A stretch of DNA of 64,000 nt, from NCBI GenBank assembly GCA_036399775.1, contig DASWMJ010000009.1, positions 3,866 to 67,865 on the forward strand, written 5' to 3'. The position numbers were made by a program, and so were the translations under genes. This document shows, in pieces, positions 2,927 to 61,460 of the stretch. Origin of the DNA: Chloroflexia bacterium (GTDB lineage Bacteria > Chloroflexota > Chloroflexia > QHBQ01 > JADMIH01). Numbering within the stretch: the stretch's first letter is position 1; every line of letters starts with the position of its first letter. A model generated the notes under the pieces. It made no database searches and was not told the DNA's origin. It saw only the letters and a program-made list of their open reading frames with translations.

Positions 2927-3054
2927 CCTTGTCATTCTGAGCGTAGCGAAGAATCTCGTCCCTCGCGTATGCTCTTGCCCTTGCATTCCCCGTCTACGCT
3001 CCCCGGCTTTGTACGCGAGGGACGAGATTCTTCGCTGCGCTCAGAATGACAAGG
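2927..3054. repeat. MITE-like palindromic element A, copy 1 (~43-bp inverted arms, GTCATTCTGAGCG-AGCGAAGAATCTCG core)
   Basis: Left arm ccttgtcattctgagcgtagcgaagaatctcgtccctcgcgta and its reverse complement tacgcgagggacgagattcttcgctgcgctcagaatgacaagg. A second copy is at 58691-58859. Confidence 0.65.
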
Positions 3055-9335: not shown

Positions 9336-10388
9336 CTATGAGCCGAGTTTGCCGTAGGCCTTAAGAATACGATATGTATCTTTACCGTCTATAAAGCAGT
9401 AGTAACGTGGCTGATAGGCATATCGAGCCAATGCCGCAAGTACATGTCTAACCTTATGATCAATATCATGGGCATGTTGGACGATCAACAAATCCGCTTG
9501 CACAGTTGCTAATCTATAGAGCTGGTCATTGGCCTTACCCTGATTGCTACTCAATGTCATAGGGCTAAAACGGGCAGGACCCTTCAGTAAGAACGCTGCT
9601 GTAACTCTCTTGCCTCCAATATGCAAAGCAGGAGTGAAGTGATCCATTTGTTCGCCTCCCCAGTCTTTACCAGTTGTATCTCCAAGCAAATCAGCTAATC
9701 TCGCCTTTATAACCTTCTCTGGCAGGTTCTTCATTTGAGATTGCCAAACAGCTAATGCAGGCGGCATTATCTTTCGACACTCACTAAACTCATCTATATT
9801 TTCTGCATGGATCTCGAATGTTTCGTAGCCAGGCCATATAACTGAATAGTCTAAATCGTGATGAGCAGAGTTATGGGTAACGACAGGCAAGCCGATCACT
9901 AAAGGCTGGATGACCACTTGCTTCTCATCAAAACTGTGTATCCGTCCTATGATTGAAACAGGTGCGCCTTCAGTCAACAAGACTCTCATGGTGGTTGATA
10001 CAAAATGCTCTGGACTGAAATCTAGAATTATAGTACGTGCATCGTATACCTGTCCAATGACCTTTTGTATGCGCTCGTTATCTGATCTGAGTTTTCCAGG
10101 TGCCACACGCTCCAAACTTGCGAATACCGTCCCCTCCCGCAGGTCATGAAGAACGGCAGCTAGTGTGGGAATACGCTTATTACGACACTTGGCAAGAACA
10201 CGATCAGACAAGAACACGCTTCTGCTCTTTACACCGAAAGGGTCGGTAAGTAGGAGCAACGCAGGGAACCGAAGAGTAATCTCAGCAATTATAGAAGGTC
10301 CAATGAACGACATACACATCCGCTCATTAAGAAATCCAGGATCAACATTTACCTCATATCCATCTGAACCAAAGAGCACTCTTATCAC
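9336..10388 (-). CDS. Hypothetical protein, cargo of low-GC islet 1 (no family recognised; C-terminal region with clustered D/E/H/K residues, possibly nuclease-like)
   Basis: 350-aa ORF in clearly AT-richer DNA, GTG start (alternative GTG at 10379 has a GAGGTG RBS). Its own ~170-bp AT-rich upstream region is 10389-10560. C-terminus ...GKDWGGEQMDHFTPALHIGGKRVTAAFLLKG...LLIVQHAHDIDHKVRH.... Confidence 0.65.
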   Translation of the reverse strand: MIRVLFGSDGYEVNVDPGFLNERMCMSFIGPSIIAEITLRFPALLLLTDPFGVKSRSVFLSDRVLAKCRNKRIPTLAAVLHDLREGTVFASLERVAPGKLRSDNERIQKVIGQVYDARTIILDFSPEHFVSTTMRVLLTEGAPVSIIGRIHSFDEKQVVIQPLVIGLPVVTHNSAHHDLDYSVIWPGYETFEIHAENIDEFSECRKIMPPALAVWQSQMKNLPEKVIKARLADLLGDTTGKDWGGEQMDHFTPALHIGGKRVTAAFLLKGPARFSPMTLSSNQGKANDQLYRLATVQADLLIVQHAHDIDHKVRHVLAALARYAYQPRYYCFIDGKDTYRILKAYGKLGS

Positions 10389-10560
10389 CTCACAGTTGCA
10401 GAACTGCGACTAAAACACAGATGGGTGCATTTAAGGCTCCCATACCACAAGTAGAATCAGAATATCCTATATGGTTGTGCCGAAGATGGGATGCGAACTC
10501 ACAGTTATGCTAGATATAAGCAATCGACAAGACACCCTTCCATGATGAGGTGTCTGCCCC

Positions 10561-10616
10561 ACGTCAAGACGGCATATGCTCCGGCAGGGTGAGCCACACC
10601 TCGCCTGCGGGGGAGG
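10561..10616. repeat. Direct repeat DR1-right: functional 3' end of gene 10564..11487
   Basis: acgtcaagacggcatatgctccggcagggtgagccacacctcgcctgcgggggagg; partner of 9182-9236. Confidence 0.8.
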
Positions 10617-11487
10617 GCTTGCTGCGAGGAGTGAGGCCGGGGCCGCCTAGCACTCTAATGGCTAGTAGAGTGCCGTCCTGGAGCATTTCTTCCACTACCC
10701 TCTCGGTCACGCCTGGGTCCCAGCCGAATAGGCGCGGGAAGATGTGGGAGGGCGCGCCCACCGAGGTATGGAGGTATCGCTCTATCAGGTAGCGCATGGC
10801 GGCGCGGCTGTTGTACTGGCGGGCCTGCTCCGCCAGGTTGGGCGCCCACCTGAGCAGCAGGTCGTAGATGTAGCAGTATTTCCACCTGTTCGAGTCGGAG
10901 ATGCCCGCCTTCACTATCTTGAGGTCGCCCTGTAGCTCCACTATGGCGCGCTCGAAGCGGCGAGCGTTATCTCCCCCACCTCCCATGCCGCAAGCCTTCC
11001 TCATCGCGCTGGTGGGCATAGGCCCTTCCCTCAGCAGCGTTTCGTAGACCAGTTTGGCCTCCACGCTCATCATTCCGTCCGCGTAGGCTTCCAGGTAGTC
11101 GTCAATCTCCCCGTAGTTGGAGGAGAGAGCGTAGACCGCAGGCAGATCGCGCATCGAGATGAAGGCGGGCTTTCCCCGGATTATCTTGCCGTACCATGCC
11201 TCCTTGCGCTCCGGTATCTTGTCTTTCCAGTCCCAGGTCTTGTGGAGGGCGTAGTCGTGGTGGTGCTTGGGCAGCTTGCGCTCGCAGCCGTTGATGGCGC
11301 TCCACAGGTCGGGGAGGGGCAGCCTATCGCCCGGAAAGAGGAGGGCGATACCTACGTCGTTGATGAATTTCACCGCTTCACCCTGCGTCTTCACCTTGAA
11401 ATCGGGGTGCATGCGGTAGCGCGGCAGGCGCACGTCGAGTATATGCGTGTAATGGAAGACAGGTAGGGAAACAGGTTCAGCTAGCAT
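10564..11487 (-). CDS. Conserved hypothetical protein (307 aa)
   Basis: Long ORF with typical high-GC codon usage. Overlaps the downstream EamA gene start by 11 nt, so operonic. No family recognised with confidence. Confidence 0.6.
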   Translation of the reverse strand: MLAEPVSLPVFHYTHILDVRLPRYRMHPDFKVKTQGEAVKFINDVGIALLFPGDRLPLPDLWSAINGCERKLPKHHHDYALHKTWDWKDKIPERKEAWYGKIIRGKPAFISMRDLPAVYALSSNYGEIDDYLEAYADGMMSVEAKLVYETLLREGPMPTSAMRKACGMGGGGDNARRFERAIVELQGDLKIVKAGISDSNRWKYCYIYDLLLRWAPNLAEQARQYNSRAAMRYLIERYLHTSVGAPSHIFPRLFGWDPGVTERVVEEMLQDGTLLAIRVLGGPGLTPRSKPSPAGEVWLTLPEHMPS

Positions 11488-14752: not shown

Positions 14753-14999
14753 CTCACCCAACTACATCTCCCCTATTCGAGAGGAATGTTCAAGAGAAGA
14801 AAACAGGCGGCGCAGTAGCCTGTTTTCTTCTTTAACTAATGATTTTACACTTGCCAACAGAGAAATATAAACATTTGAAATTTCACCTTGCCTAAATTGT
14901 GTATTGACAATATAAGAAATGGGATATATAATGAGGTATAATTTAGACTAGCCTAAAAATCACTACCGATTATGTACCGGGGTGTTGGAGATCATCAGA

Positions 15000-17342: not shown

Positions 17343-17358
17343 AGAAAAAGAGATTATC

Positions 17359-17403
17359 AATAAGCGGAAAATGGGCGGCGCAGCCGCCCATTTTCCGCTT
17401 ATT
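17359..17403. terminator. Bidirectional terminator-like palindrome (AAAATGGGCGGC-GCA-GCCGCCCATTTT family)
   Basis: 21-bp perfect arms aataagcggaaaatgggcggc / gccgcccattttccgcttatt between convergent genes. A related palindrome is at 23487-23536. Confidence 0.65.
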
Positions 17404-17444
17404 GACAAAAAACATCTCTCTGTCCAGGCCAGTCACCCAGGTCC

Positions 17445-23486: not shown

Positions 23487-23536
23487 TCAAAAATAATAAA
23501 ATGGGCGGCGCAGCTGCCCATTTTATTATTTTTGAA
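23487..23536. terminator. Terminator-like palindrome (same core as 17359-17403)
   Basis: ttcaaaaataataaaatgggcggc gca gctgcccattttattatttttgaa. Confidence 0.6.
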
Positions 23537-28536: not shown

Positions 28537-29009
28537 GGCACAGCACTCCTTCGCTATTCCTTTGTCATGTGTGTAGTTTATGCCTTCGGAAGGCCGGTTG
28601 TAAAGTTATGCACGGTCGGAATGTTCACAGCTAATAACGAACTGCTCTACATGGAGTTGCGCATCCTGCCGTTGTGAAGTTATGCCTTCCTGATCTACTC
28701 TGAAAGTAGCCACTCGGACACTCACCGAGCCGCTCAGGAGTAAGCGCTCACGTTTGAGGTAGGGGCGACCCGGTGGGTCGCCCTGGCGGGGTTAGCGTAC
28801 CATGCTTATGTGCTACCCCAACTAGGGCGACCCGGCGGGTCGCCCCTACGGAAACATTCCTTTATCCCTATTCTAAACAGTTACGCTTAGGAAAGTTATT
28901 CACATACAACAGAGTAAAATTACTATTGGCACAGGCCACGCGTTGTGGTATGATTGCAAGACCTGACTTTCGTTTCCTCTTGAGTCACTAACCACAGGTT
29001 GATTATTGC

Positions 29010-31591: not shown

Positions 31592-32821
31592 ATGTTAGCT
31601 CTTGACGATATAGCGCATGGGCTATTTGACGTGGCGCGAACGGGCGATAACGCTTACGTGCAGGTTATAGCCTCGCGCGTCGGCACATGGCACCAAGATC
31701 GCCCACTCATCATTCAAAGCCGATCTAACCATATAAAGAGGCGTAAATCCGCGCAGGCTGCTTTACATAAGCATCGAATTCGCCTGCTCATCAACCCTGG
31801 ATGGAGATGCCCATATCTCGTAGCTGAGAACCTGTATAAAAAGGGTTGCCCTCTGCTGGATGAGTTGCAGGCGCGAGTAGACATCTATGGAAATGGCATA
31901 GATTGGGCCTGCGGTTTGCTGGAAATCGGACAGAAGCTCGAAGCGCAATACAACGACTGGCTATGGGACTGGAGCCATATCCTGCTCATGCGTAATGGCC
32001 GGGTGGAGGCAGCGTCACGCCTGCTGGACAAGTACATCGGCCACATCGAGAAGCTGGCCCGGCGCTTTGAGGGTATGTGCCCGGCGCTGGCAGACGACCT
32101 GTTCCAGGAAGCCTGGATCCACTTCCATTACCGTGTGCTGCCCAGCTACGACCCGACGCATGGTGCCACTTTGTGGGAATACGCGTCAGTCGCGCTCCAA
32201 CGCAAGTTACGCGATGTATGTCTGAAATGGTCCCACGCCTCCCGCTGGGATAGAACGCCTTACAAGTTGGTGCAGGATACCTTGCAGGACCTGCGCGGCA
32301 GACTGGAGCGTGAGCCTGCCGATACAGAAGTGGCGCAGGAGTGCAGGCTGGCCCTGGCGGAAGTTCAGGAAATCCTGGATAGGGACCGGCTGCCTCGAAC
32401 CGTGTCGCTCGACCTGGCAGCCGGCGGGAGCAGCATCCGGCCCCCCAAAGAATCGGACGTGCCGAGCGCGCTGATAGAGTTCATGGGCCGCCAGTCGCAG
32501 CTTGATGAGATCGTCAGGTTCCTCAACGAGGACAACGGCGGGTCTGATGGGGTGAAATGGTTGAGTATCTACGCCCTGAAACTTTATGAAAAGCATACCT
32601 GGGCTGATATTCTCCTGGTGCTGGATGACGCTCAACCCATCGAGTGGGCAACCGTACACGCACGCTACAGACTGCCTTCGTCGGTGCCTACCCACTGGCC
32701 TACAATCCGCGCTTTGTTCGATAAGCGGCCTCCGACGCTGAACGTGGAAAGCATGAAAAAGTGGTTCAGGCGGCGCACGGACAGGCTGCTCAGCGAGTTC
32801 AAACCTGCGCCCCGATCCTGA
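31592..32821 (+). CDS. Sigma-70-family-like protein with long N-terminal extension
   Basis: Region ADDLFQEAWIHFHYRVLPSYDPTHGATLWEYASVALQRKLRD resembles sigma-70 region 2 (DLxQEtfl...W.......). The remainder is not recognised. Confidence 0.45.
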   Translation: MLALDDIAHGLFDVARTGDNAYVQVIASRVGTWHQDRPLIIQSRSNHIKRRKSAQAALHKHRIRLLINPGWRCPYLVAENLYKKGCPLLDELQARVDIYGNGIDWACGLLEIGQKLEAQYNDWLWDWSHILLMRNGRVEAASRLLDKYIGHIEKLARRFEGMCPALADDLFQEAWIHFHYRVLPSYDPTHGATLWEYASVALQRKLRDVCLKWSHASRWDRTPYKLVQDTLQDLRGRLEREPADTEVAQECRLALAEVQEILDRDRLPRTVSLDLAAGGSSIRPPKESDVPSALIEFMGRQSQLDEIVRFLNEDNGGSDGVKWLSIYALKLYEKHTWADILLVLDDAQPIEWATVHARYRLPSSVPTHWPTIRALFDKRPPTLNVESMKKWFRRRTDRLLSEFKPAPRS

Positions 32822-32859
32822 CAGGTCTTGATCGTTCTCGGAGGCTTAATGCAACCACA

Positions 32860-32985
32860 CCGCCCGGCGACTAAAGTCGCGGGCAACAACAACAAAGTCG
32901 CCCTTCGGCGACTACTTTCATGGCATAGTCCGCGTAGGCGGACTTCGTAACCGTAGCCCGCGAATTCATTCGCCGGGCGGTGTCC
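32860..32985. repeat. REP-like structured palindrome, solo copy (family also flanking the IS200-like tnpA)
   Basis: ccgcccggcgactaaagtcgcgggcaac...gtcgcccttcggcgac...agtccgcgtaggcggact...cgccgggcgg. Nested hairpins. About 85-90% identical to 44149-44275 and 44738-44870. Confidence 0.7.
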
Positions 32986-33020: not shown

Positions 33021-34028
33021 TCAGGTATTCACTTCAACCCTGCGGCCCGTGCGTGCTGATTCTAGCAACGCGCCCATCGTCTGCATATTAGCCAGGCTCT
33101 CTCCGAGGGTGTAACTCAATTCGGTATTTGACAGCACGGCATCGGCAAAGTGTTCGACCATCAGGTGGTATTCGTGGGCACCCTCGATGGTTATAGATTC
33201 TATTGGGCTTGTGGCCTCGCATCTGTCGATTACTATAGCCGTATCTTCCTCGCGTATGCGAAACGGCTCCGCTACCTTGATCAACCCGTCGGTGCCGGAG
33301 ATTTCGACCCACTGCTGCATGGTACGACCTACGTTGAAGCTGCAATCAATGAGCGCAAGCACGCCGTTCGGAAACTCCAACGTGCCCACCAGCGACATAT
33401 CGACGCCTGTATCGGCCCATACCGCGCTGGCCGTTACCCGGTGCGGTGGCATGCCCGCCAGCAAGGTCGCGATATTCACGCAGTAGCAGCCGACATCCAT
33501 GAGCGCGCCCCCTCCCAGGTCTTTGCTCCACCGCACGTCGTGGGGACGCCTCAGGTAGAAGTCGAAGGTTGCCCTGATTATTCGTGTTTCGCCTATCGCC
33601 TGGTCCGCCACCAACTGCCTGACGCGCTCCGTCTGGGGGTGGAAGCGGAACATGAACGCCTCCATAATCTTGACCCCGTTCTCTTGAGCGGCGGCTATCA
33701 TCCTCTCCACGTCTTGCGGGTTGGTAGCGGCGGGCTTCTCGCAGAGGACGTGTTTATGGTGTTCGGCAGCGCGTATGCTCCACTCGGCATGCAGGGCGTT
33801 GGGGAGCGGCACGTACACCGCGTCAATCAGGTCAGATGCTAGCATTTCGTCGTAGCTACCGAAGTAGTGGGGGACGTCGCGCTCCTGCGCCCAGGCGCGG
33901 GCCTTCTCTATATCCCGGCTCGCTATCGCCACCAATTCCCCGTTCTTCGACTTTCTGATCCCGGCTACATTCGCGTCTGCGATACGTGCAGTACCGAGCA
34001 CGCCCCACCGCAATTTTGTCTTTTGCAT
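33021..34028 (-). CDS. Gfo/Idh/MocA-family NAD(P)-dependent oxidoreductase
   Basis: N-terminal Rossmann LRWGVLGTARIADANV...; EKP motif in HVLCEKPAA. Confidence 0.85.
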   Translation of the reverse strand: MQKTKLRWGVLGTARIADANVAGIRKSKNGELVAIASRDIEKARAWAQERDVPHYFGSYDEMLASDLIDAVYVPLPNALHAEWSIRAAEHHKHVLCEKPAATNPQDVERMIAAAQENGVKIMEAFMFRFHPQTERVRQLVADQAIGETRIIRATFDFYLRRPHDVRWSKDLGGGALMDVGCYCVNIATLLAGMPPHRVTASAVWADTGVDMSLVGTLEFPNGVLALIDCSFNVGRTMQQWVEISGTDGLIKVAEPFRIREEDTAIVIDRCEATSPIESITIEGAHEYHLMVEHFADAVLSNTELSYTLGESLANMQTMGALLESARTGRRVEVNT

Positions 34029-35690: not shown

Positions 35691-35700
35691 AATCTTACCC

Positions 35701-35812
35701 TACTGCGTAGTGCGTAGTGCGTAATTGTTGAACCGCAAAATCGCAAAGGAACGCAGAGTTCGCAAAGGTTATTATAGGTTCTACGCAATACGCAATACGT
35801 TTACGTTTCACG
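35701..35812. repeat. Inverted pair of heptamer arrays (GCGTAGT / CGCAATA type) between the two ABC genes
   Basis: ctgcgtagtgcgtagtgcgtaa ... ctacgcaatacgcaatacgtttacgtttcacg. Confidence 0.65.
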
Positions 35813-41520: not shown

Positions 41521-41634
41521 CCGTATTGCGTAAAGCTATATAGAGTTTGTACAATCCCACAAATCGCTTAGTGTTCTTTGTGTCTTTGTGGTTCGATAAT
41601 CACGCAATACGCAATACGAACTACGCAATACGAG
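41521..41634. repeat. Composite repeat: GAACCACAAAGACACAAAGAACACTAAG unit (reverse orientation) joined to a CGCAATACG heptamer array
   Basis: cttagtgttctttgtgtctttgtggttcgat aatcacgcaatacgcaatacgaactacgcaatacg. The same unit in opposite orientation is at 61326-61460; a partial is at 14676-14697. Confidence 0.7.
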
Positions 41635-41648
41635 TCCAGGAGCACTCC

Positions 41649-42921: not shown

Positions 42922-44136
42922 GTGAGTGCCCTTGTTCAGCAATTTGGCAGCATCCCCGCACGCATGAAGTGGGGCGGCCTGGCCGCTGTTGTGCTTATGG
43001 CGGCGCTCCTGGGGTGGTACTTCTTCCGCAGCGCGCCGGGGCAGGGCCAGCTAGCCGCGCCACCCCCGCCGCGCCCCGCTATCGGCAAGACGATCACATA
43101 TAGGGAATATACCGCCGCCATACTCAGCGCGCTCTCCGATGTCCGCAAGGCCAAACCGGCTGCGTTGGGTGACGAGCGGGAAGAGTTGCTCAAGAAAGCG
43201 GCAGGTACCCTCGAAGGAGTAGAGGGCGCGGGCACGCCCGCGCGAGATGGTGGTCTGTCGGAGATAGACAACACCGCTATCATTGACGCGCTCAGGGCTA
43301 AAGACCCGGATGTCGAGGATATAGAGTCCAGCCTGTCGGCGCTTGCCCAGGGCTTACAGGGAGGCGCGTTAGACCCGGTGGCGGGCACGCTCGATGGCGC
43401 GCAGGCCACCGGCGCGATGCATGAGGTGTTGAACGACCCCATCTTCGACTACGAGCAGCAGATATCACCCCTGCAAAGGTTGGCGCGCTGGCTTGCCGGT
43501 TTCACGGGAGATGGCGACCCTGACGACGTGCTCTGGCGGTGGTTCTCAGCCCTGGTGGCAGCCATAGCTGCGGGCGCGCTCACGTTTCTGGCGAGTGACA
43601 AGTTGGGCAATCGCTGGGCGCGGCTGGGGCTTGCGGTGTTAGTAGGTTTGCTCGTCGGGGCGCTCTTCTTTGCTGGGTTGGGCGCGATTGACGACACAAT
43701 ACTGCTTTTGGGTGCCGTGGGGCTGGTGGTAGCGGCTATAGTGGTCGGCCTACTCGTGGCGGGACTGGGTCGCGGGTCCGCGCCGAGCGCGAGGCCGCCC
43801 GCTATATCGGAGCTGGCTGCGGCCCTGGGCATGAACGCCGCCGAAGCGCGCAGGAGATCGGCGGAGGCTGCGGGAGAGGGCGATTACCGTGGAGCGATAA
43901 GATACAGGTGCCTGGCCGTGCTCCTCGCGCTTGACGAGGTGGGCAGGCTCACGTTCGACCGGGCCGCCACCAACCGTGAATACCTGTACCGCGCCCCCGG
44001 CACCCTCCAGGAAGAGCTACAGCCCCTGCTCACCCGCTTCGATGCTATCTGGTACGGCGGCTCCCCCACCGATGGAGAGGAATGGGCCGAGTATTCGGAG
44101 CGCGCTGCTCGAATAGAAGCGCAGGTGGCTGTGTGA
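42922..44136 (+). CDS. DUF4129-like protein (first gene of the MoxR/DUF58 cluster)
   Basis: C-terminus LTFDRAATNREYLYRAPGTLQEELQPLLTRFDAIWYGG is typical of DUF4129. N-terminal TM helices. GTG start (alternative ATG at 42964). Confidence 0.6.
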   Translation: MSALVQQFGSIPARMKWGGLAAVVLMAALLGWYFFRSAPGQGQLAAPPPPRPAIGKTITYREYTAAILSALSDVRKAKPAALGDEREELLKKAAGTLEGVEGAGTPARDGGLSEIDNTAIIDALRAKDPDVEDIESSLSALAQGLQGGALDPVAGTLDGAQATGAMHEVLNDPIFDYEQQISPLQRLARWLAGFTGDGDPDDVLWRWFSALVAAIAAGALTFLASDKLGNRWARLGLAVLVGLLVGALFFAGLGAIDDTILLLGAVGLVVAAIVVGLLVAGLGRGSAPSARPPAISELAAALGMNAAEARRRSAEAAGEGDYRGAIRYRCLAVLLALDEVGRLTFDRAATNREYLYRAPGTLQEELQPLLTRFDAIWYGGSPTDGEEWAEYSERAARIEAQVAV

Positions 44137-44148
44137 AAATAGACAGAA

Positions 44149-44275
44149 TTGCCCTTGCGACTGAAGTCGCGGGCAACAAAAACAAAGTCGCCCTTCGGCG
44201 ACTACTCTATCCAATATAGTCCGCGCAGGCGGACTTCGTAATCGTTGCCCGCGACTTCAGTCGCAAGGGCAATTT
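44149..44275. repeat. REP-like palindrome, copy flanking tnpA on the 5' side
   Basis: attgcccttgcgactgaagtcgcgggcaac...gtcgcccttcggcgac...agtccgcgcaggcggact...gttgcccgcgacttcagtcgcaagggcaat. Confidence 0.75.
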
Positions 44276-44299
44276 TGACAATAGCAAAGGGGCAGGCGT

Positions 44300-44728
44300 A
44301 TGCGCGCACCTTACACGCAACTTTATCTGCATTGCGTTTGGGCAACATGGGATCGCTTGCCATTGATTACCCCTACCGTTGAGCCGCACGTTTATGCTTG
44401 TATAGCTACCAAGTGTGAGGAGCATAGTTGTGAAACGCTTGCCGTTGGTGGAATTGAGGACCATATTCACCTACTGGTACGCTTTCCTCCTACGCTTGAA
44501 ATAGCAAGAATTATGAAAGAGGTAAAAGGCGCATCGTCGCACTTGATGACACATGTGCTTACGCCGGATGTCTTCTTCAAGTGGCAAGGCGGGTATGGAG
44601 CATTCACGGTTACTAAATTTGGAGTGGATAAAGCCAGAGCCTATGTAGAGAAGCAAAAGGAGCATCACTCCGCGAACCGGTTGTTTTCAGAATGGGAACG
44701 ATACGAATTCGATGATAAAGATGCGTGA
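44300..44728 (+). mobile_element. tnpA: IS200/IS605-family Y1 transposase (TnpA; REP-associated tyrosine transposase-like)
   Basis: 142 aa. HxH motif in GIEDHIHLLVRF; N-terminus MRAPYTQLYLHCVWATWDRLPLI and ...GGYGAFTV... are typical of IS200-like TnpA. Flanked on both sides by REP-like palindromes. Confidence 0.8.
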
Positions 44729-44737
44729 TCCCCGACA

Positions 44738-44870
44738 TTGCCCAGCGACTGAAGTCGCGGGCAACAAAAACAAAGTCGCCCTTCGGCGACTACTCTCTCC
44801 TAGAGAGTCCGCCTGCGCGGACTTCGTTTCCGTTGCCCGCGACTTCAGTCGCCGGGCAATCCTCCGGCGC
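44738..44870. repeat. REP-like palindrome, copy flanking tnpA on the 3' side
   Basis: attgcccagcgactgaagtcgcgggcaac...gtcgcccttcggcgac...agtccgcctgcgcggact...gttgcccgcgacttcagtcgccgggcaat. Confidence 0.75.
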
Positions 44871-44881
44871 GAGGCAAGCAT

Positions 44882-46138
44882 ATGAGCATAGAGCCTGTAC
44901 GCCAGGGCAACAGCAGGCTCGGCGAGCTTGCGGTGCTCGGCGTGTCTGTGGTGGCGGTCTTCGCCGGCATGATATGGCTGGTCGGCCTGCAAGGTACGTC
45001 AGACACGCCCGAAAGCGCGGGTTCTTCCCAGAGCGCGGGGCGCAGGGGTACGCTGGCTCTCTACAGGTGGTTGGAGAGATCGGGGTTTGAGGTATCACGT
45101 GTGGCGGGCGGGGAGCAGTTCCCGCCGCGCGTAGATACTCTTATCATGGTCAACCCCAACGGGGACTTCCCTCAGGGGCAGGCGGGCAGCGTGCGCCGGT
45201 GGGTAGAGGAGGGGCACACCCTCATCCTCGCGCTGGGCAGCAGGAACGGCGATCTGAGCACAGGCATAGGAGGCAGACACCCTATGCTACGCGAGCTTGG
45301 CATTGACCTCGACCTGTCACCCGGTTATTCCTCGACGGTGCCTCTTTCCCAGCCTCTTTTCAGCCGCCCGCCGGTATCGAAAGTCAAGTTGCCAGGGGTA
45401 TTCAGGTTGGAGTTGCCTGTGCGCGACACCGTTGTGCTCGCATCTTCCGGCAACGAGGATGGCAGCCGCGCACACCTGGCCGCTTTGCTCAAGCTGGGCG
45501 AGGGGCGCGTTTTCGTGCTCGCCAGCGATTACCCTCTCAACAACGAGGGTCTGCGCGACGAAGACAACGGCGCATTCATCTATAACATGGCGCAGGCGGC
45601 AGGCGGCAGGCGTGTAGCCTTTGACGAAGCGCATCACGGCCAGAGCGTCGGCGGCGACCTCATCGCCCTCTTGACGGACAATCCCTGGGGTTGGGCGCTA
45701 CTCTATGGCGTGCTGCTCACGGGCGTATATATCTTTTGGAGCGCGCGCCGCCTCGGCCCTCCACTGCCGGTAAGGTCGCCCGACCAGCGTAGGCCCACTT
45801 CCGATTACGTTACTTCGGTGGCGGGCCTCTTCAGGCGAGCACGCAAGCCGGGTTACGTTGCGGAGCGCTATCTACAGTTTTTCAAGCGCACCCTCTCACG
45901 CCACGCCGAGCTAGACCCGACCCTCACCGACTCGCGCTTCGTGCAGGCGCTCTCTGAACGAGGTCGCCATACCTTTGACCCGGAAAGTATGCTGCGTGCC
46001 GTAGAGCGTCTGCGTCGCCTGGAAGGTGAGGCTACGGCTGGTGAAGGCATAGAGTTAGAGACGCTAAAGGCGATACGAGAGGCGGAAAGAGTTAGGCGGG
46101 AGGCCTTGGGGCTGCGGAGTGATTCTGAAAACGGCTGA
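44882..46138 (+). CDS. DUF4350-like protein (MoxR cluster)
   Basis: N-terminal TM; GTLALYRWLERSGFEV...LIMVNP resembles the DUF4350 signature. It sits between DUF4129 and MoxR as in the canonical cluster. Confidence 0.6.
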   Translation: MSIEPVRQGNSRLGELAVLGVSVVAVFAGMIWLVGLQGTSDTPESAGSSQSAGRRGTLALYRWLERSGFEVSRVAGGEQFPPRVDTLIMVNPNGDFPQGQAGSVRRWVEEGHTLILALGSRNGDLSTGIGGRHPMLRELGIDLDLSPGYSSTVPLSQPLFSRPPVSKVKLPGVFRLELPVRDTVVLASSGNEDGSRAHLAALLKLGEGRVFVLASDYPLNNEGLRDEDNGAFIYNMAQAAGGRRVAFDEAHHGQSVGGDLIALLTDNPWGWALLYGVLLTGVYIFWSARRLGPPLPVRSPDQRRPTSDYVTSVAGLFRRARKPGYVAERYLQFFKRTLSRHAELDPTLTDSRFVQALSERGRHTFDPESMLRAVERLRRLEGEATAGEGIELETLKAIREAERVRREALGLRSDSENG

Positions 46139-46228
46139 AATTTGCTATTCACCGCTTGTACGAAATCATAGAATATAGTAGGATAAAGATAGCGCAGTTT
46201 GCGCTATTTACACAAAAGGGGGTATATC

Positions 46229-46501
46229 ATGGAGAAGGCAATAAGTGCGTTCGAGGCAAGACGTAACTTTGGAAAGTTGCTACAGGACGTTGCAGCAAAG
46301 GGAGACAAGATAGTTGTAGAGCGTCACGGAGAGCCGGTGGCTGTGCTGGTGCCCATGTCAGTTTATAAGCAATGGCAATGCAACAGGGAGAGGGCATATA
46401 ACACTCTGCGGGAGATATCTGAACGGGTGAACATGTCTGAGGAAGAGGCCAATATACTCATTGAGGAGGCCATAAGCGCGGTTCGCAGAGGCGAAGATTG
46501 A
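46229..46501 (+). CDS. Type II antitoxin, Phd/YefM family
   Basis: MEKAISAFEARRNFGKLLQDVAAKGDKIVVERHGEPVAVLVPMSVYKQW; AAGGGGG RBS. Confidence 0.75.
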   Translation: MEKAISAFEARRNFGKLLQDVAAKGDKIVVERHGEPVAVLVPMSVYKQWQCNRERAYNTLREISERVNMSEEEANILIEEAISAVRRGED

Positions 46502-46920
46502 TGAAGGTGGTGGTAGACGCTAACATTATTATTAGTCGTATACTCGTGCCCACAGGCGTACCAGCACAGGTTATAGAATACCATAAGAAAACGATTGAAC
46601 TTCTGACTTCCGAGCCTATTCTTGCGGAATGTCGCAGGGTGATGCGCTACAAACGCCTTCGCGCACGTCATCATTTGACTGACGATGAGATAGATTTGGC
46701 TATTGATTCGTTTAGGGAGATTGCCGATGTGGTGGAAGGAATCATGAATCTTGATGTCATCACAAAAGACCCGGACGACAATAAGATTATTGAATGCGCG
46801 GTGGTAGGCGGGGCTGATTACATAGTAAGTGGTGACGCCCACCTACTCAATGTCGGAGAGTATAAAGGCATCAGGATTCTCTCCCCCGCAAGTTTCCTAC
46901 TCCTATTAAAACGGGCCTAG
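46498..46920 (+). CDS. PIN-domain toxin (VapC-like), overlaps antitoxin stop by 4 nt
   Basis: MMKVVVDANIIISRIL... with acidic residues at typical PIN positions (DAN, ...SGD). ATGA overlap with the upstream antitoxin. AT-richer DNA. Confidence 0.6.
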   Translation: MMKVVVDANIIISRILVPTGVPAQVIEYHKKTIELLTSEPILAECRRVMRYKRLRARHHLTDDEIDLAIDSFREIADVVEGIMNLDVITKDPDDNKIIECAVVGGADYIVSGDAHLLNVGEYKGIRILSPASFLLLLKRA

Positions 46921-47789: not shown

Positions 47790-48731
47790 TTGCCACTCGT
47801 AGACATGTATCGCGCCCTTGATAGCGAGCGGCGCAAAGTTATCGTTGGGCAGCGTTGGACGTTCGATTTGCTGCTCGTGGCCCTGCTCACCGACGGGCAC
47901 GTCTTGTTGGAGGGAGTGCCGGGGGTGGCTAAGACCCTCATGGCGCGCACCCTTGCTACTACCCTGCGAGCCGACTTCAAGCGCGTGCAGTTCACACCTG
48001 ACCTCATGCCCTCCGACGTTATCGGCACCAACGTATTTGACCTGGCGAGCAGCACTTTCTCTCTGAGGCGGGGACCCGTATTTACCAGCATCATGCTAGG
48101 CGACGAGATAAACCGCGCCCCGGCCAAGACCCAATCGGCACTCCTGGAAGCGATGGAGGAGCGTCAGGTGACTATTGACGGCGTGAGCCACCCCCTGCCC
48201 GATCTCTTCATGGTCATCGCCACCCAGAACCCAATCGAGTACGAGGGCACCTACCCCTTGCCGGAGGCGCAACTCGACCGCTTCCTCTTCAAAGTGCTGG
48301 TGGACTACCCTACGCACGAAGAAGGTCTGCAAGTATTGAGGAATTACCAGGCGGGGTTCAGTCCGCGCAGGCTAACGGGTATAGAGCCGGTGGCGGGGCC
48401 GGACGACCTGCGCTCGGCGCGCCACGAGATAGCCGCCATCAAAGTAGCCGACCCGCTGATCGACTACATCCAGCGCATCGTGGACGAGAGCCGCCGCTCA
48501 CCCGATTTGTCGCTGGGTGGCTCCCCACGCGCCGCGATAGCCCTTCTCAACGCGAGCAAAACCCTCGCCGCGCTCCAGGGCCGCGAGTACGTTGTGCCCG
48601 ACGACATCAAGCTCCTGGTGCCGCCCGTTATGCGCCACCGCGTCATCCTCAAACCCGAAGCTGAGATAGAGGGGCTGAACGCCGATCGTGCCCTTGAGCG
48701 CATCATGGCGCGGGTCGAAGTACCCAGGTAA
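47790..48731 (+). CDS. MoxR-family AAA+ ATPase
   Basis: Walker [13 protein letters not shown], Walker B region [24 protein letters not shown], then the ...[21 protein letters not shown] sensor motifs. Confidence 0.88.
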
Positions 48732-48784
48732 ATTGCGAATTTCGGATTGCGGATTGCGAATTTGATGACCTTAGATTTTACGGC

Positions 48785-50164
48785 ATGATAACGCGGCGTG
48801 CTCTTTATTTGCTGCTGCTCGCGGCACCTATACTCGCGCTGGCGACTATAGTGCCCGTCGCTGTATGGGCGGCTGCTCTTTACCTGGCGGGTATGCTGGC
48901 GCTGCTGGCCGCCGACTTTTGGCTGTCGCCCAAGCCTTCCGACTTCAGGCTTGCACGGGAGAATGAAAGCAAGCTCTCCCTCGGTGCAGACAACATGGTG
49001 CGTATCGCTATCAGGCGGCTGGGCGCGCCCGGCGGCCAGGGCCTGAGAGATGCCCCCGTGCCCTTCCTGGTGCGCGACGAGCCTCCGGTCGAGTACATCG
49101 CCAGCGACGTATTTCTCCCACGCAGCAACGAGGCAAATAACTCAAAACTCAAAACTCAAAACTCAAAACTCGAAATCGGTCCAGGGGAGACGGCGGAAGT
49201 CAGCTATACCGTCAAGCCGTTGCGGCGCGGGGACTATGCGTTCGGTGGGTGCCACCTGCGCTATGGCGGCGTGCTGGGCCTCATCCTCCGCCAGCATCGC
49301 TACCCCATCGGTGCGCCCGTGAAGGTCTACCCTAACCTACTGGAAGTGCGTAAATATGAATTGCTGGCGCGGCGGGACCAGCTATTCGAGATAGGGCTGA
49401 AGAATGCTCGGCGCATAGGGCAGGGCACCGAGTTCGAGCGGCTGCGTGACTATGAGCGCGACGACGACTACCGCCGCATCAACTGGCCCGCCACCGCCCG
49501 CCTGCACAAGCCCATCACTACGGATTACCAGCCCGAAAGGAGCCAGAGCGTTATCGTCATGCTCGACGCGGGGCGATTGATGACCGCGCCCCTCGGCCCG
49601 CTCTCCAAGCTCGATTATGCTATCAACACGACGCTACTGCTGGCATACGTAGCTATAATTCGGGGGGACCGGGTCGGCCTCCTTACCTTCGCCGATAGAG
49701 TGACGGGCTACTGGGAGCCGGACAAGGGCCGCAAGCAGTTCCTCGCGCTGCTGGATGCCCTCTACAAGGTGCAGCCCCAGCAAGTTGAGGCCGATTATAT
49801 GCGGGCGAGCGCGTTCCTCTCTACGAGGCGCAGCAAGCGCAGCCTGGTGGTGCTCTTCACCGACATTATAGACAGGCAGCAGGCCGACGTGATGGTGCGC
49901 GGCTTCGGGCGGCTGGCCCCACGCCACCTGCCTGTGGCCGTGACTATGGCCGACAACGAAGTGCTGACTATGGCCCACCGCGAACCGTCCGATGCCCAGC
50001 AGATGTACGAGAAGGTAATCGCCCAGCAACTCCTGGACGACCGCGTGAAGGCTCTGGACGCCCTCCAACGCCGGGGCGCGCTCACCATAGACGTGCCCGC
50101 CGACAAGCTGACGCCTGCGGTAGTGAACAAGTACCTTGAGCTAAAGGCGCGAGGGAGGTTGTAA
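48785..50164 (+). CDS. DUF58-domain protein (vWA-like, MoxR partner)
   Basis: DYERDDDYRRINWPATARLHKPITTDYQPERSQSVIVMLDAGRLM is the DUF58 core. Contains an in-frame AACTCAA heptamer array (49139-49177) encoding NSKLKTQNSKLEI. Confidence 0.8.
   Translation: MITRRALYLLLLAAPILALATIVPVAVWAAALYLAGMLALLAADFWLSPKPSDFRLARENESKLSLGADNMVRIAIRRLGAPGGQGLRDAPVPFLVRDEPPVEYIASDVFLPRSNEANNSKLKTQNSKLEIGPGETAEVSYTVKPLRRGDYAFGGCHLRYGGVLGLILRQHRYPIGAPVKVYPNLLEVRKYELLARRDQLFEIGLKNARRIGQGTEFERLRDYERDDDYRRINWPATARLHKPITTDYQPERSQSVIVMLDAGRLMTAPLGPLSKLDYAINTTLLLAYVAIIRGDRVGLLTFADRVTGYWEPDKGRKQFLALLDALYKVQPQQVEADYMRASAFLSTRRSKRSLVVLFTDIIDRQQADVMVRGFGRLAPRHLPVAVTMADNEVLTMAHREPSDAQQMYEKVIAQQLLDDRVKALDALQRRGALTIDVPADKLTPAVVNKYLELKARGRL
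50081..50164. repeat. Direct repeat DR2-left: native 3' end of the DUF58 gene (84 bp)
   Basis: ctcaccatagacgtgcccgccgacaagctgacgcctgcggtagtgaacaagtaccttgagctaaaggcgcgagggaggttgtaa. Partner at 52063-52146 has 5 differences. Confidence 0.85.
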
Positions 50165-55202: not shown

Positions 55203-55252
55203 AAGGCTTATGTACCACTATAAGTATAAGCCTGTAGAGGAAGAGTGGCAAA

Positions 55253-55413
55253 TGCGGAGTGCGGAGTGCGGAGTGCGGAAGGCGGAGTGCGGAGTGCGGA
55301 GTGCGGAGTGCGGAATATAGCCGAGCACTAACGCCAACATTACCGATTACCCAAATTGGCCTATCTTAATTCCGCATTCCGCACTCCGCATTCCGCACTC
55401 CGCATTCCGCATT
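55253..55413. repeat. Inverted pair of heptamer arrays (GCGGAGT x9 / TTCCGCA x6) around a 53-bp centre
   Basis: gcggagtgcggagtgcggagtgcggaaggcggagt... atagccgagcactaacgccaacattaccgattacccaaattggcctatcttaa ...ttccgcattccgcactccgcattccgc. Confidence 0.8.
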
Positions 55414-55787
55414 CAGGAGGCTGCTCGCTCTTGAAGGTCGGTGTACTTCGTGTTGCGGCCTCTTGACAGGTCGGCGGGGTAGTGGCCTGCGGAGATCGCC
55501 ATCTTGTCGCGGAAGACGGCAGAGAGGTCGAAGTCTACCGAGGAAGCGAGCGCCAGGACGTGATAGAGCAGATCGGCTATCTCGTGGGCGACGGCCAGCC
55601 GCTTGCCTGGCTGCTTGAGGAGGGCTTCTATCTCATCATCTGTGCGGAAGCGGAAATGCTCCATCAACTCGCCCAGCTCTATCGCCATGCTGAGGGTGAG
55701 GTCCTTCGGGGACTCATGCCACTGGCGCTCCTCGCAAAACTTATCTACCAGGCTGCGCAGGTAGGCTACCGATGTCTGCTCGTCCAT
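55413..55787 (-). CDS. MazG-like nucleotide pyrophosphohydrolase
   Basis: ELGELMEHFRF...EIADLLYHVLALA is the EExxE/D MazG core. Confidence 0.8.
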   Translation of the reverse strand: MDEQTSVAYLRSLVDKFCEERQWHESPKDLTLSMAIELGELMEHFRFRTDDEIEALLKQPGKRLAVAHEIADLLYHVLALASSVDFDLSAVFRDKMAISAGHYPADLSRGRNTKYTDLQERAAS

Positions 55788-58690: not shown

Positions 58691-58859
58691 CCTGTCATTC
58701 TGAGCGAAGCGAAGAATCTCGATCCTCGCGTAGATGCTTATGGTACGCCTTGTATGCTTACCCGACACGATCTCTGAGAGCGAGATTCTTCTTTCTTACG
58801 AATAATCCCGGCATTGTTCGCGAGGATCGAGATTCTTCGCTTCGCTCAGAATGACAAGG
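58691..58859. repeat. MITE-like palindromic element A, copy 2
   Basis: cctgtcattctgagcgaagcgaagaatctcgatcctcgcgta ... cgcgaggatcgagattcttcgcttcgctcagaatgacaagg. Confidence 0.65.
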
Positions 58860-60250: not shown

Positions 60251-60371
60251 CGTATTGCGTAGTGCGTATTTCGTATTGCAATGGAGTTAGTGAACTTGAG
60301 TTGTGGAAGCTAGCTATTACTAACCCTCTTTGATTGGGACCTTACGCAATACGAAATACGCACTACGTAAG
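60251..60371. repeat. Inverted pair of heptamer arrays (CGTATTG/CGTAGTG) around a ~75-bp centre
   Basis: cgtattgcgtagtgcgtatttcgtattgca ... ttacgcaatacgaaatacgcactacgtaa (exact reverse-complement arms). Confidence 0.8.
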
Positions 60372-61325: not shown

Positions 61326-61460
61326 TTCGTATTGCGTAGTGCGTATTGCGTATTGCATGTGAACCACAAAGACACAAAGAACACTAAGGTTTCGGGATTG
61401 AACCATAGGAGCGCTGAGGCTATTAGAAGCTTTACGCAATACGTACTACGTAGTACGAGG
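61326..61460. repeat. Composite repeat: CGTATTG heptamer array + GAACCACAAAGACACAAAGAACACTAAG unit + inverted heptamer array
   Basis: cgtattgcgtagtgcgtattgcgtattg catgt gaaccacaaagacacaaagaacactaagg ... ctttacgcaatacgtactacgtagtacg. The unit matches 41555-41585 in opposite orientation. Confidence 0.75.

Follow-up and report, generated by a model that had tools for sequence, protein, structure and literature searches.

Why does a transposase gene lie between two copies of a short, strongly folded repeat, when a third copy of the same repeat stands elsewhere without any gene? The question is raised by tnpA, which we studied in a 64-kb stretch of DNA (the window, meaning the whole stretch that was analysed) from an uncultured bacterium of the Chloroflexia (Chloroflexota). 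The gene is co-directional with the DUF4129-DUF4350 operon in which it sits. The original prediction took it for a REP-associated tyrosine transposase (RAYT) bracketed by the REP family that it disseminates. The features at issue are the following.

42922-44136: DUF4129 gene, neighbour of the tnpA unit
44137-44881, + strand: whole inserted unit (element, tnpA, element and short linkers, ~0.74 kb)
44148-44275, + strand: left four-hairpin element (122.7 bits, E 9e-31), with closing stem TTGCCC.../...GGGCAA, H1 44157-44170 (GCGACTgaAGTCGC), box GGGCAAC 44171-44177, H2 44186-44203, H3 44218-44235, box GTTGCCC 44244-44250 and H4 44251-44264
44300-44728, + strand: tnpA, 142-aa Y1/HUH transposase ORF (Pfam Y1_Tnp, 6e-23, full domain)
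44736-44861, + strand: right four-hairpin element (116.2 bits, E 5e-29), with H1 44745-44758, box 44759-44765, H2 44774-44791, H3 44806-44823, box 44832-44838 and H4 44839-44852
44882-46138: DUF4350 gene, neighbour of the tnpA unit
32858-32983, + strand: solo four-hairpin element, without tnpA (116.6 bits, E 4e-29)

Scores are those of a covariance model, R1, built from 22 related elements. Run on the window, it returns exactly these three elements (E 9e-31 to 5e-29), and the match that ranks next has E ~1. All three have the same orientation. The right copy is 90% identical to the left over 108 nt, and mean column identity in the alignment of the three is 83%. The 21-mer GCGACTGAAGTCGCGGGCAAC occurs in each element as two inverted matches 66 nt apart, which gives six matches at up to three mismatches where none is expected from 100 shuffles. 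As single-stranded DNA, the three copies fold at -52.9, -54.7 and -41.2 kcal/mol, and the z-scores of the three against shuffles are -12.1, -12.8 and -7.1. Two inverted units that jointly form a hairpin (-53 to -55 kcal/mol), as in a REPIN, are thus present. The solo copy, whose right outer arm is partly decayed (GCGAATTCATTCGC), occupies the gap between the convergent ORFs 31592-32821 (+) and 33021-34028 (-). An intact Y1 transposase ORF bracketed by its own ~125-nt repeat family is therefore what the window holds, as had been predicted; the sequence, too, is as described there, except that the right copy ends at about 44861 and not at 44870.

Class and copy number of the transposase

TnpA carries DHIH at residues 54-57, WQ at residues 95-96 and YVEKQKEHH at residues 115-123. 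The signature of a 16-member clade alignment is DHxH, WQ and Y---QK-HH, and H55, H57, W95, Q96, Y115, Q119, K120, H122 and H123 are invariant in 16 of 16 members. The tyrosine motif, Y---Q--HH, is not the Y---NP of RAYTs, which form class 2 (PMC6006769). An exhaustive search for relatives gave 6678 clusters at 50% identity with E <= 1e-3, and 78 at E <= 1e-30. Among the best 150 of the 6678 cluster representatives, 113 have Y...Q..HH, 137 have WQ and none has Y...NP. Nineteen of these best 150 are proteins of 272-299 aa with two tandem Y1 domains (P0189, P0190, P0195, P0196 and 15 others). Because IS200-type TnpA works as a dimer, these proteins could be single-chain dimers.

Profile and structure comparisons point the same way as the motifs. 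TnpA scores 69.4 bits against the NCBIfam IS200/IS605 model NF033573, above its cut-off of 55, and 21 bits against the RayT model NF047646, below its cut-off of 80. A PDB sequence search matched the Sulfolobus IS200, ISHp608 and ISDra2 transposases and gave no match to the E. coli RAYT. The AlphaFold model has moderate confidence (pLDDT 65.8) and was therefore used for ranking folds only; in Foldseek, ranks 1-29 are IS200/IS605 TnpAs and the E. coli RAYT, 4er8, comes at rank 36 (E 0.078). TnpAY1 subclass 1.2 has been defined by DH[IV]H, WQ and Y---Q--HH (YIKNQKEHH), with a median length of 148 aa (Quentin 2018, PMC6006769 Table 1). It is a low-copy group, at 1.7 copies per genome, found mostly in Cyanobacteria and Bacteroidetes and entered as 'REP: no' (PMC6006769). 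TnpA has the three motifs (DHIH, WQ, YVEKQKEHH), a length of 142 aa and one locus per variant, and its ends are composite elements, not IS200-type hairpins. Judged by its sequence, TnpA fits subclass 1.2, on the IS200-like branch, and the prediction of a RAYT proper does not stand. Literature searches found neither a later paper on the subclass nor one with the motif strings of the element, these strings giving primer coincidences only.

These matches raise the strongest alternative, namely that we are dealing with a plain, autonomous IS200-family insertion sequence of ~0.74 kb with structured ends, whose solo copies are deletion derivatives of MITE or PATE type, with no RAYT-like relationship. 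The IS200/IS605 model score and the closest PDB sequence and fold matches all favour it. However, the motifs of IS200 proper, W[TS] and Y[IV]ENQ, are absent from TnpA, which has WQ and YVEKQ..HH instead. Copy number also appears to speak against it. The exact protein was found at this locus only, in two assemblies (JGI 3300034402 Ga0334960_000007, 181 kb; ENA ERZ27253115 k141_175468, 237 kb), and its 90% cluster has one member. In line with the original interpretation, no second tnpA, identical or at least 90% identical, was found in the protein collection searched, and the 64-kb window has one copy. The contigs examined for three relatives, P0105 (13 contigs), P0050 (6) and P0062 (3), show the same single site per protein in different samples. 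IS200s of subclass 1.1, by contrast, average 4.8 copies at 99.4% identity (PMC6006769).

The four-hairpin element and its association with tnpA

In the ~125-nt element a short closing stem encloses two mirrored modules, and across subfamilies its parts keep the order closing stem, H1, NNCAAC box, H2, H3, GTTGNN box, H4, closing stem. Each module comprises an outer hairpin (GCNNNT-loop-ANNNGC, the pattern of H1 across subfamilies), next to it a CAAC/GTTG box, and then an inner hairpin, so that one module, read on either strand, is 5'-GTTG(N2-3)-hairpin, a form that can be compared with the 5'-GTAG-hairpin of classical REPs. The conserved tag is GTTG(N2-3) beside H4 and CAAC beside H1; a GTAG beside H2 occurs in the window's own copies only.

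Two alignments were used to ask which helices are conserved. In an unfitted MAFFT alignment of the 22 elements, a model of local hairpins pairs 95.3% of cells, with changes on both sides at 15 pairs, a result equalled by 0 of 500 shuffles. H1 is 100% and H4 99.2% paired in this alignment, and the closing stem is 76% paired with both-side changes at 8 of 8 pairs. In an alignment of 131 covariance-model matches, which was fitted to the model and in which each element was entered on both strands, pairing in the four hairpins is 96.6-99.2%, and both partners have changed at 25 of the 26 hairpin pairs (0 of 500 shuffles equal). The conserved feature is thus four local hairpins and a short closing stem, backed by compensatory changes. 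A long-range pairing of H1 with H4 was rejected as a conserved feature, having 0 compensatory pairs in the MAFFT alignment, where variation breaks the pairing. The extended palindrome of the original prediction is present in the window's copies, because H4 is the exact complement of H1 in the window's subfamily, but it is peculiar to that subfamily. A helix between GGGCAAC and GTTGCCC was also tried and found weakly supported (86.8% paired, one position broken in 48 rows), and the boxes are therefore better read as conserved sequence.

An Rfam search of the element returned no family at gathering threshold. The near match was CRISPR-DR28 (RF01356), to the inner hairpin with a GCAAA lead at 44217-44240 (-), at 30.3 against 35 bits. 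A CRISPR reading was rejected, the window having neither an array nor spacers.

Related elements flank tnpA in all six of the homologue lineages fetched (59-67% identical), or seven lineages with the window, in the following arrangements.

L058 (P0014): full element, tnpA, full element
L059 (P0105): H1H2 half, tnpA, full element
L069 (P0095): full element, tnpA, H3H4 half
L070 (P0062): H1H2, tnpA, H3H4, H1H2
L072 (P0114): three tandem copies, tnpA, four tandem copies
L073 (P0050): three tandem copies, tnpA, partial copy

Common to all is a module of outer and inner hairpin upstream of tnpA and its mirror image downstream, which is the layout of a REPtron, and the sequence of the element subfamily varies with the TnpA lineage. 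For an ordinary IS200 one can point to L070, where the order H1H2-tnpA-H3H4 resembles left end, gene and right end, and to the location of tnpA, which differs in every lineage examined. Against it, the ends of the unit are complete copies of the solo element and not distinct left and right ends, and some relatives have tandem arrays of three to four elements beside tnpA. In L072 the tandem array (9490-10984) has a period of 107-140 nt; such arrays could be mis-called as CRISPR arrays.

Two plasmids of Bacteroidota carry genes with the same signature. In Persicobacter sp. JZB09 (CP012861.1, 285352-288741; L079), mirrored hairpin pairs enclose tnpA (YIQNQKFHH). The 201-nt flank upstream of this gene is matched 12 times in the 632-kb replicon, tnpA itself once. 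In Bernardetia (NZ_CP147018.1; L080), a tnpA with Y---Q--HH has four GTTGCAGAGCAAC hairpins in inverted pairs upstream. These two genes hint that the association is general.

Copies without the gene, also predicted, are not confined to the solo element of the window. An exact-match scan of metagenome contigs with the 21-mer found at least 50 loci in many samples, at least 42 of them with distinct flanks, the source contig not being among those listed; matches chosen in this way are silent on abundance per genome. Nine of the listed loci come from one metagenome, JAABUN01, on contigs of 22-152 kb. No TnpA relative was found by tblastn in the 265 kb around the metagenomic loci. Among species-representative genomes, which do not include the source genome, a scan with the inner 21-mer, specific to the window's copies, found five loci in other MAGs. 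Full elements stand in Anaerolineae and Chloroflexota MAGs, two of them in 8 kb of L055. Viral contigs held neither a 21-mer match nor a TnpA relative. Overlap with stop-to-stop ORFs was tried as a way to class the metagenomic copies as intergenic and is uninformative in GC-rich DNA.

A gene flanked by copies of a dispersed repeat family, as in a REPtron, is therefore found in the window and in six homologue lineages, together with copies that lack tnpA. Two counts argue in the opposite direction. The 64-kb window has only three copies, two of them flanking tnpA, and further copies are rare in the 20-kb flanks of the relatives.

The unit at the DUF4129-DUF4350 junction

A close relative from another sample, L077, shows the site without the unit. 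It shares ~88% nucleotide identity with the window (86-93% in the main syntenic blocks, ~14 kb in total, by blastn), and its DUF4350 protein is 89% identical to that of the window. At its DUF4129-DUF4350 junction there is neither tnpA nor element, and the stop codon of DUF4129 overlaps the start codon of DUF4350 (GTGTGA; GCTGTGTGAGCC). Homology between the window and L077 ends at 44136 and restarts at 44887. The more distant L078 (69% aa) likewise lacks the unit. From the empty site it follows that the 0.74-kb unit, two elements and tnpA, arrived as one piece. The prediction that the unit interrupts the gene pair is borne out, and such inserted units split operons. Comparison of the filled and empty sites shows that the gene-bearing unit has been mobile, that the whole of it is a recent insertion at this locus and that tnpA here is not a long-fixed domesticated locus. 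Such behaviour is that of an insertion sequence and counts against a REPtron-like reading.

The last ~20 nt of the insert, the right linker, carry a GAGG ribosome-binding site, and the DUF4350 ATG (44882) follows 7 nt after it. The insert is bracketed by the junctions TGAAAATAGA (44134-44143, +) and TGAGCATAGA (44883-44892), identical at 8 of 10 positions. They may be an imperfect 10-bp target duplication, but this is uncertain and could be chance because it is based on a single event. A target duplication is not what Y1 transposition normally leaves, and a possible one, at odds with Y1 chemistry, is a further point against the REPtron-like reading. Farther along the operon, the window has genes for a PhdYeFM antitoxin and a PIN_3 toxin after DUF4350 (46199-46920); L077 has an antitoxin-like gene only (10073-10351), and nucleotide identity to the window falls to 71% there, from 87-93% in the main syntenic blocks.

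The unit is of IS200 size and is missing from the orthologous site of an ~88% identical relative, as expected of an ordinary IS200-family element. Set against the lack of a second copy in the sequences searched, the composite ends, the tandem arrays and the motifs, this leaves that explanation unlikely, though the best of the alternatives.

A second alternative is that the elements serve the host, for instance as terminators, as structures that stabilise mRNA or as binding sites for proteins, and that a transposase gene has merely targeted them, as some insertion sequences target REPs. The elements do stand between genes and are transcribed as part of operons, H2 with its T-run scores as terminator-like on the minus strand, and L070 looks like a gene inside one element. 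However, the empty site of L077 has overlapping genes and no element, and therefore the elements came with tnpA and were not a pre-existing target. The mirror symmetry of the element would be useless at the RNA level, no Rfam family was matched at gathering threshold, and the subfamily sequences differ with the TnpA lineage. We consider this alternative very improbable. Chance similarity or an assembly artefact, in favour of which nothing was seen, is hardly credible at all, given two independent assemblies (JGI and ENA) that agree on the locus, covariance-model E-values of ~1e-29 and a 21-mer with 0 matches expected in 100 shuffles.

Proposed mechanism, known systems and other repeats

Taken together, our results are probably best explained by a REPtron-like unit, that is, an apparently single-copy Y1/HUH transposase of subclass 1.2 type, flanked by two copies of a short non-autonomous element on whose movement it most likely acts in trans. 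By analogy with the TnpAs of IS608 and ISDra2 and with E. coli TnpA-REP, for which structures and biochemistry serve as reference cases (PMC6006769, PMC3479197), TnpA would bind the modules of hairpin plus box on transiently single-stranded DNA. It would cleave beside the hairpins through a 5'-phosphotyrosine at Y115, with a metal held by H55 and H57. Rejoining of the ends would then excise the 125-nt element, which could be reinserted elsewhere, in trans. Because tnpA lies between two elements, the 0.74-kb composite carrying its own gene could move too, presumably rarely, and at this locus it has done so. A GGGG stands ~8 nt upstream of the tnpA ATG, and no sigma-70-like promoter is predicted near the gene in 43800-45200; transcription would come by read-through from the DUF4129 operon.

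A close parallel is the REPtron or REPIN-RAYT system, reportedly described for E. coli TnpA-REP/YafM and the Pseudomonas RAYTs (Nunvar 2010, Bertels & Rainey 2011, Ton-Hoang 2012). As there, an apparently single-copy gene for a Y1/HUH protein has inverted or clustered copies of a short hairpin repeat on either side, and further copies of this repeat are spread over intergenic DNA where the gene is lacking. The hairpin foot bears a tetranucleotide tag, and inverted doublets form one larger hairpin. The differences lie in the enzyme, which belongs here to the IS200-like branch with Y---Q--HH and not to class 2 with Y---NP; in the tag, which is GTTG here and so departs from the classical REP tag 5'-GT[AG]G (e.g. 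GTAG-hairpin); in the unit, which has four hairpins (two per half) and a closing stem; and in the host, which is one of the Chloroflexota. RAYTs are also described as vertically inherited, whereas the gene-bearing unit here is a recent insertion.

REP/RAYT is the main example of a transposase that has ceased to make copies of itself and keeps up a population of short repeats in their place. To our knowledge, all well-studied cases involve class 2 enzymes, mostly in Proteobacteria. Here the REPtron arrangement is built on an IS200-like enzyme, in a different phylum and with a more elaborate, four-hairpin substrate. It offers a testable function for subclass 1.2, which had none known, and it may represent a step on the way from an insertion sequence to a domesticated enzyme.

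What links TnpA with subclass 1.2 as published is the set of motifs, a size close to 148 aa, a low copy number, a C-terminal tail that is short and conserved, and the absence of IS200-type ends; that subclass is listed without REPs, whereas the Chloroflexota members described here have a cognate dispersed repeat (PMC6006769). With IS200, IS608 and ISDra2 the unit shares the catalytic fold, the closest sequence and structure matches, a size of ~0.7 kb and tnpA as its only gene, and with the IS200/IS605 elements and their PATE or MITE derivatives it shares subterminal hairpins and short non-autonomous forms built of the ends. In IS200, however, the two ends form small hairpins that differ from each other and lie on one strand, and the element occurs in several near-identical copies; in the present unit each end is a whole, mirror-symmetric element, and tnpA is apparently single-copy. 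TIRtrons, with their TIRYT enzymes, are similar in that Y1 genes are flanked by longer, partly self-complementary inverted repeats in families of moderate size, but the TIRYT proteins belong to class 2.1, have HTH tails and go with GGGGWSAS repeats (Di Nocera 2013, PMC3733652). The GTAG-23 REPs of Thermomicrobium roseum are a precedent for REPs in Chloroflexi, although they differ from the present element in being GTAG-tagged and gathered in few large clusters (PMC3733652).

A bolder proposal, which we hold as tentative but worth serious consideration, is that subclass 1.2, described in 2018 as a sister of IS200 without an explained function, is as a whole the dedicated enzyme of unrecognised four-hairpin, mirror-symmetric mobile elements in several phyla. 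The case for the pairing comes from the seven Chloroflexota lineages, with hints from the Bacteroidota genes. If true, subclass 1.2 would be an evolutionary intermediate between selfish IS200s and domesticated RAYTs, an enzyme whose IS200-type active site already serves gene-less repeats and which can still take its own gene elsewhere.

The window also contains other repeats. At 28759-28849 there is an inverted doublet of a GTAG-tagged REP, GTAGGGGCGACCCGGTGGGTCGCCC ... GGGCGACCCGGCGGGTCGCCCCTAC, present once, which is a classical REPIN-like element of a family other than the four-hairpin element. Another inverted doublet, CCTTGTCATTCTGAGCG(T/A)AGCGAAGAATCTCG..CCTCGCGTA, is found at 2927-3054 and 58693-58856, with spacers of 42 and 88 nt. 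In L044 a related motif, GTCCTGAGC...GAAGGAC, is inserted into inner hairpins of the four-hairpin elements, and in L073 it lies downstream of tnpA. Tandem heptanucleotide repeats (GAGTGCG, CGTATTG/CGTAGTG, AACTCAA), which resemble the STRR repeats of cyanobacteria, are intergenic and often followed by their own inverted copy. They lie at the following positions of the window.

234-277, 1461-1550, 35699-35801, 41601-41636, 48726-48765: heptanucleotide repeats
49139-49171, 55238-55414, 60251-60369, 61328-61459: heptanucleotide repeats, continued

In L078, AATAGGC is repeated about five times in the DUF4129/DUF4350 gap (~9940-9990). Three long palindromes in the window, at 14789-14837, 17357-17405 and 23487-23535, have the common core AAAATGGGCGGCGCAGC(C/T)GCCCATTTT; they are possible bidirectional terminators, or else members of another repeat family.
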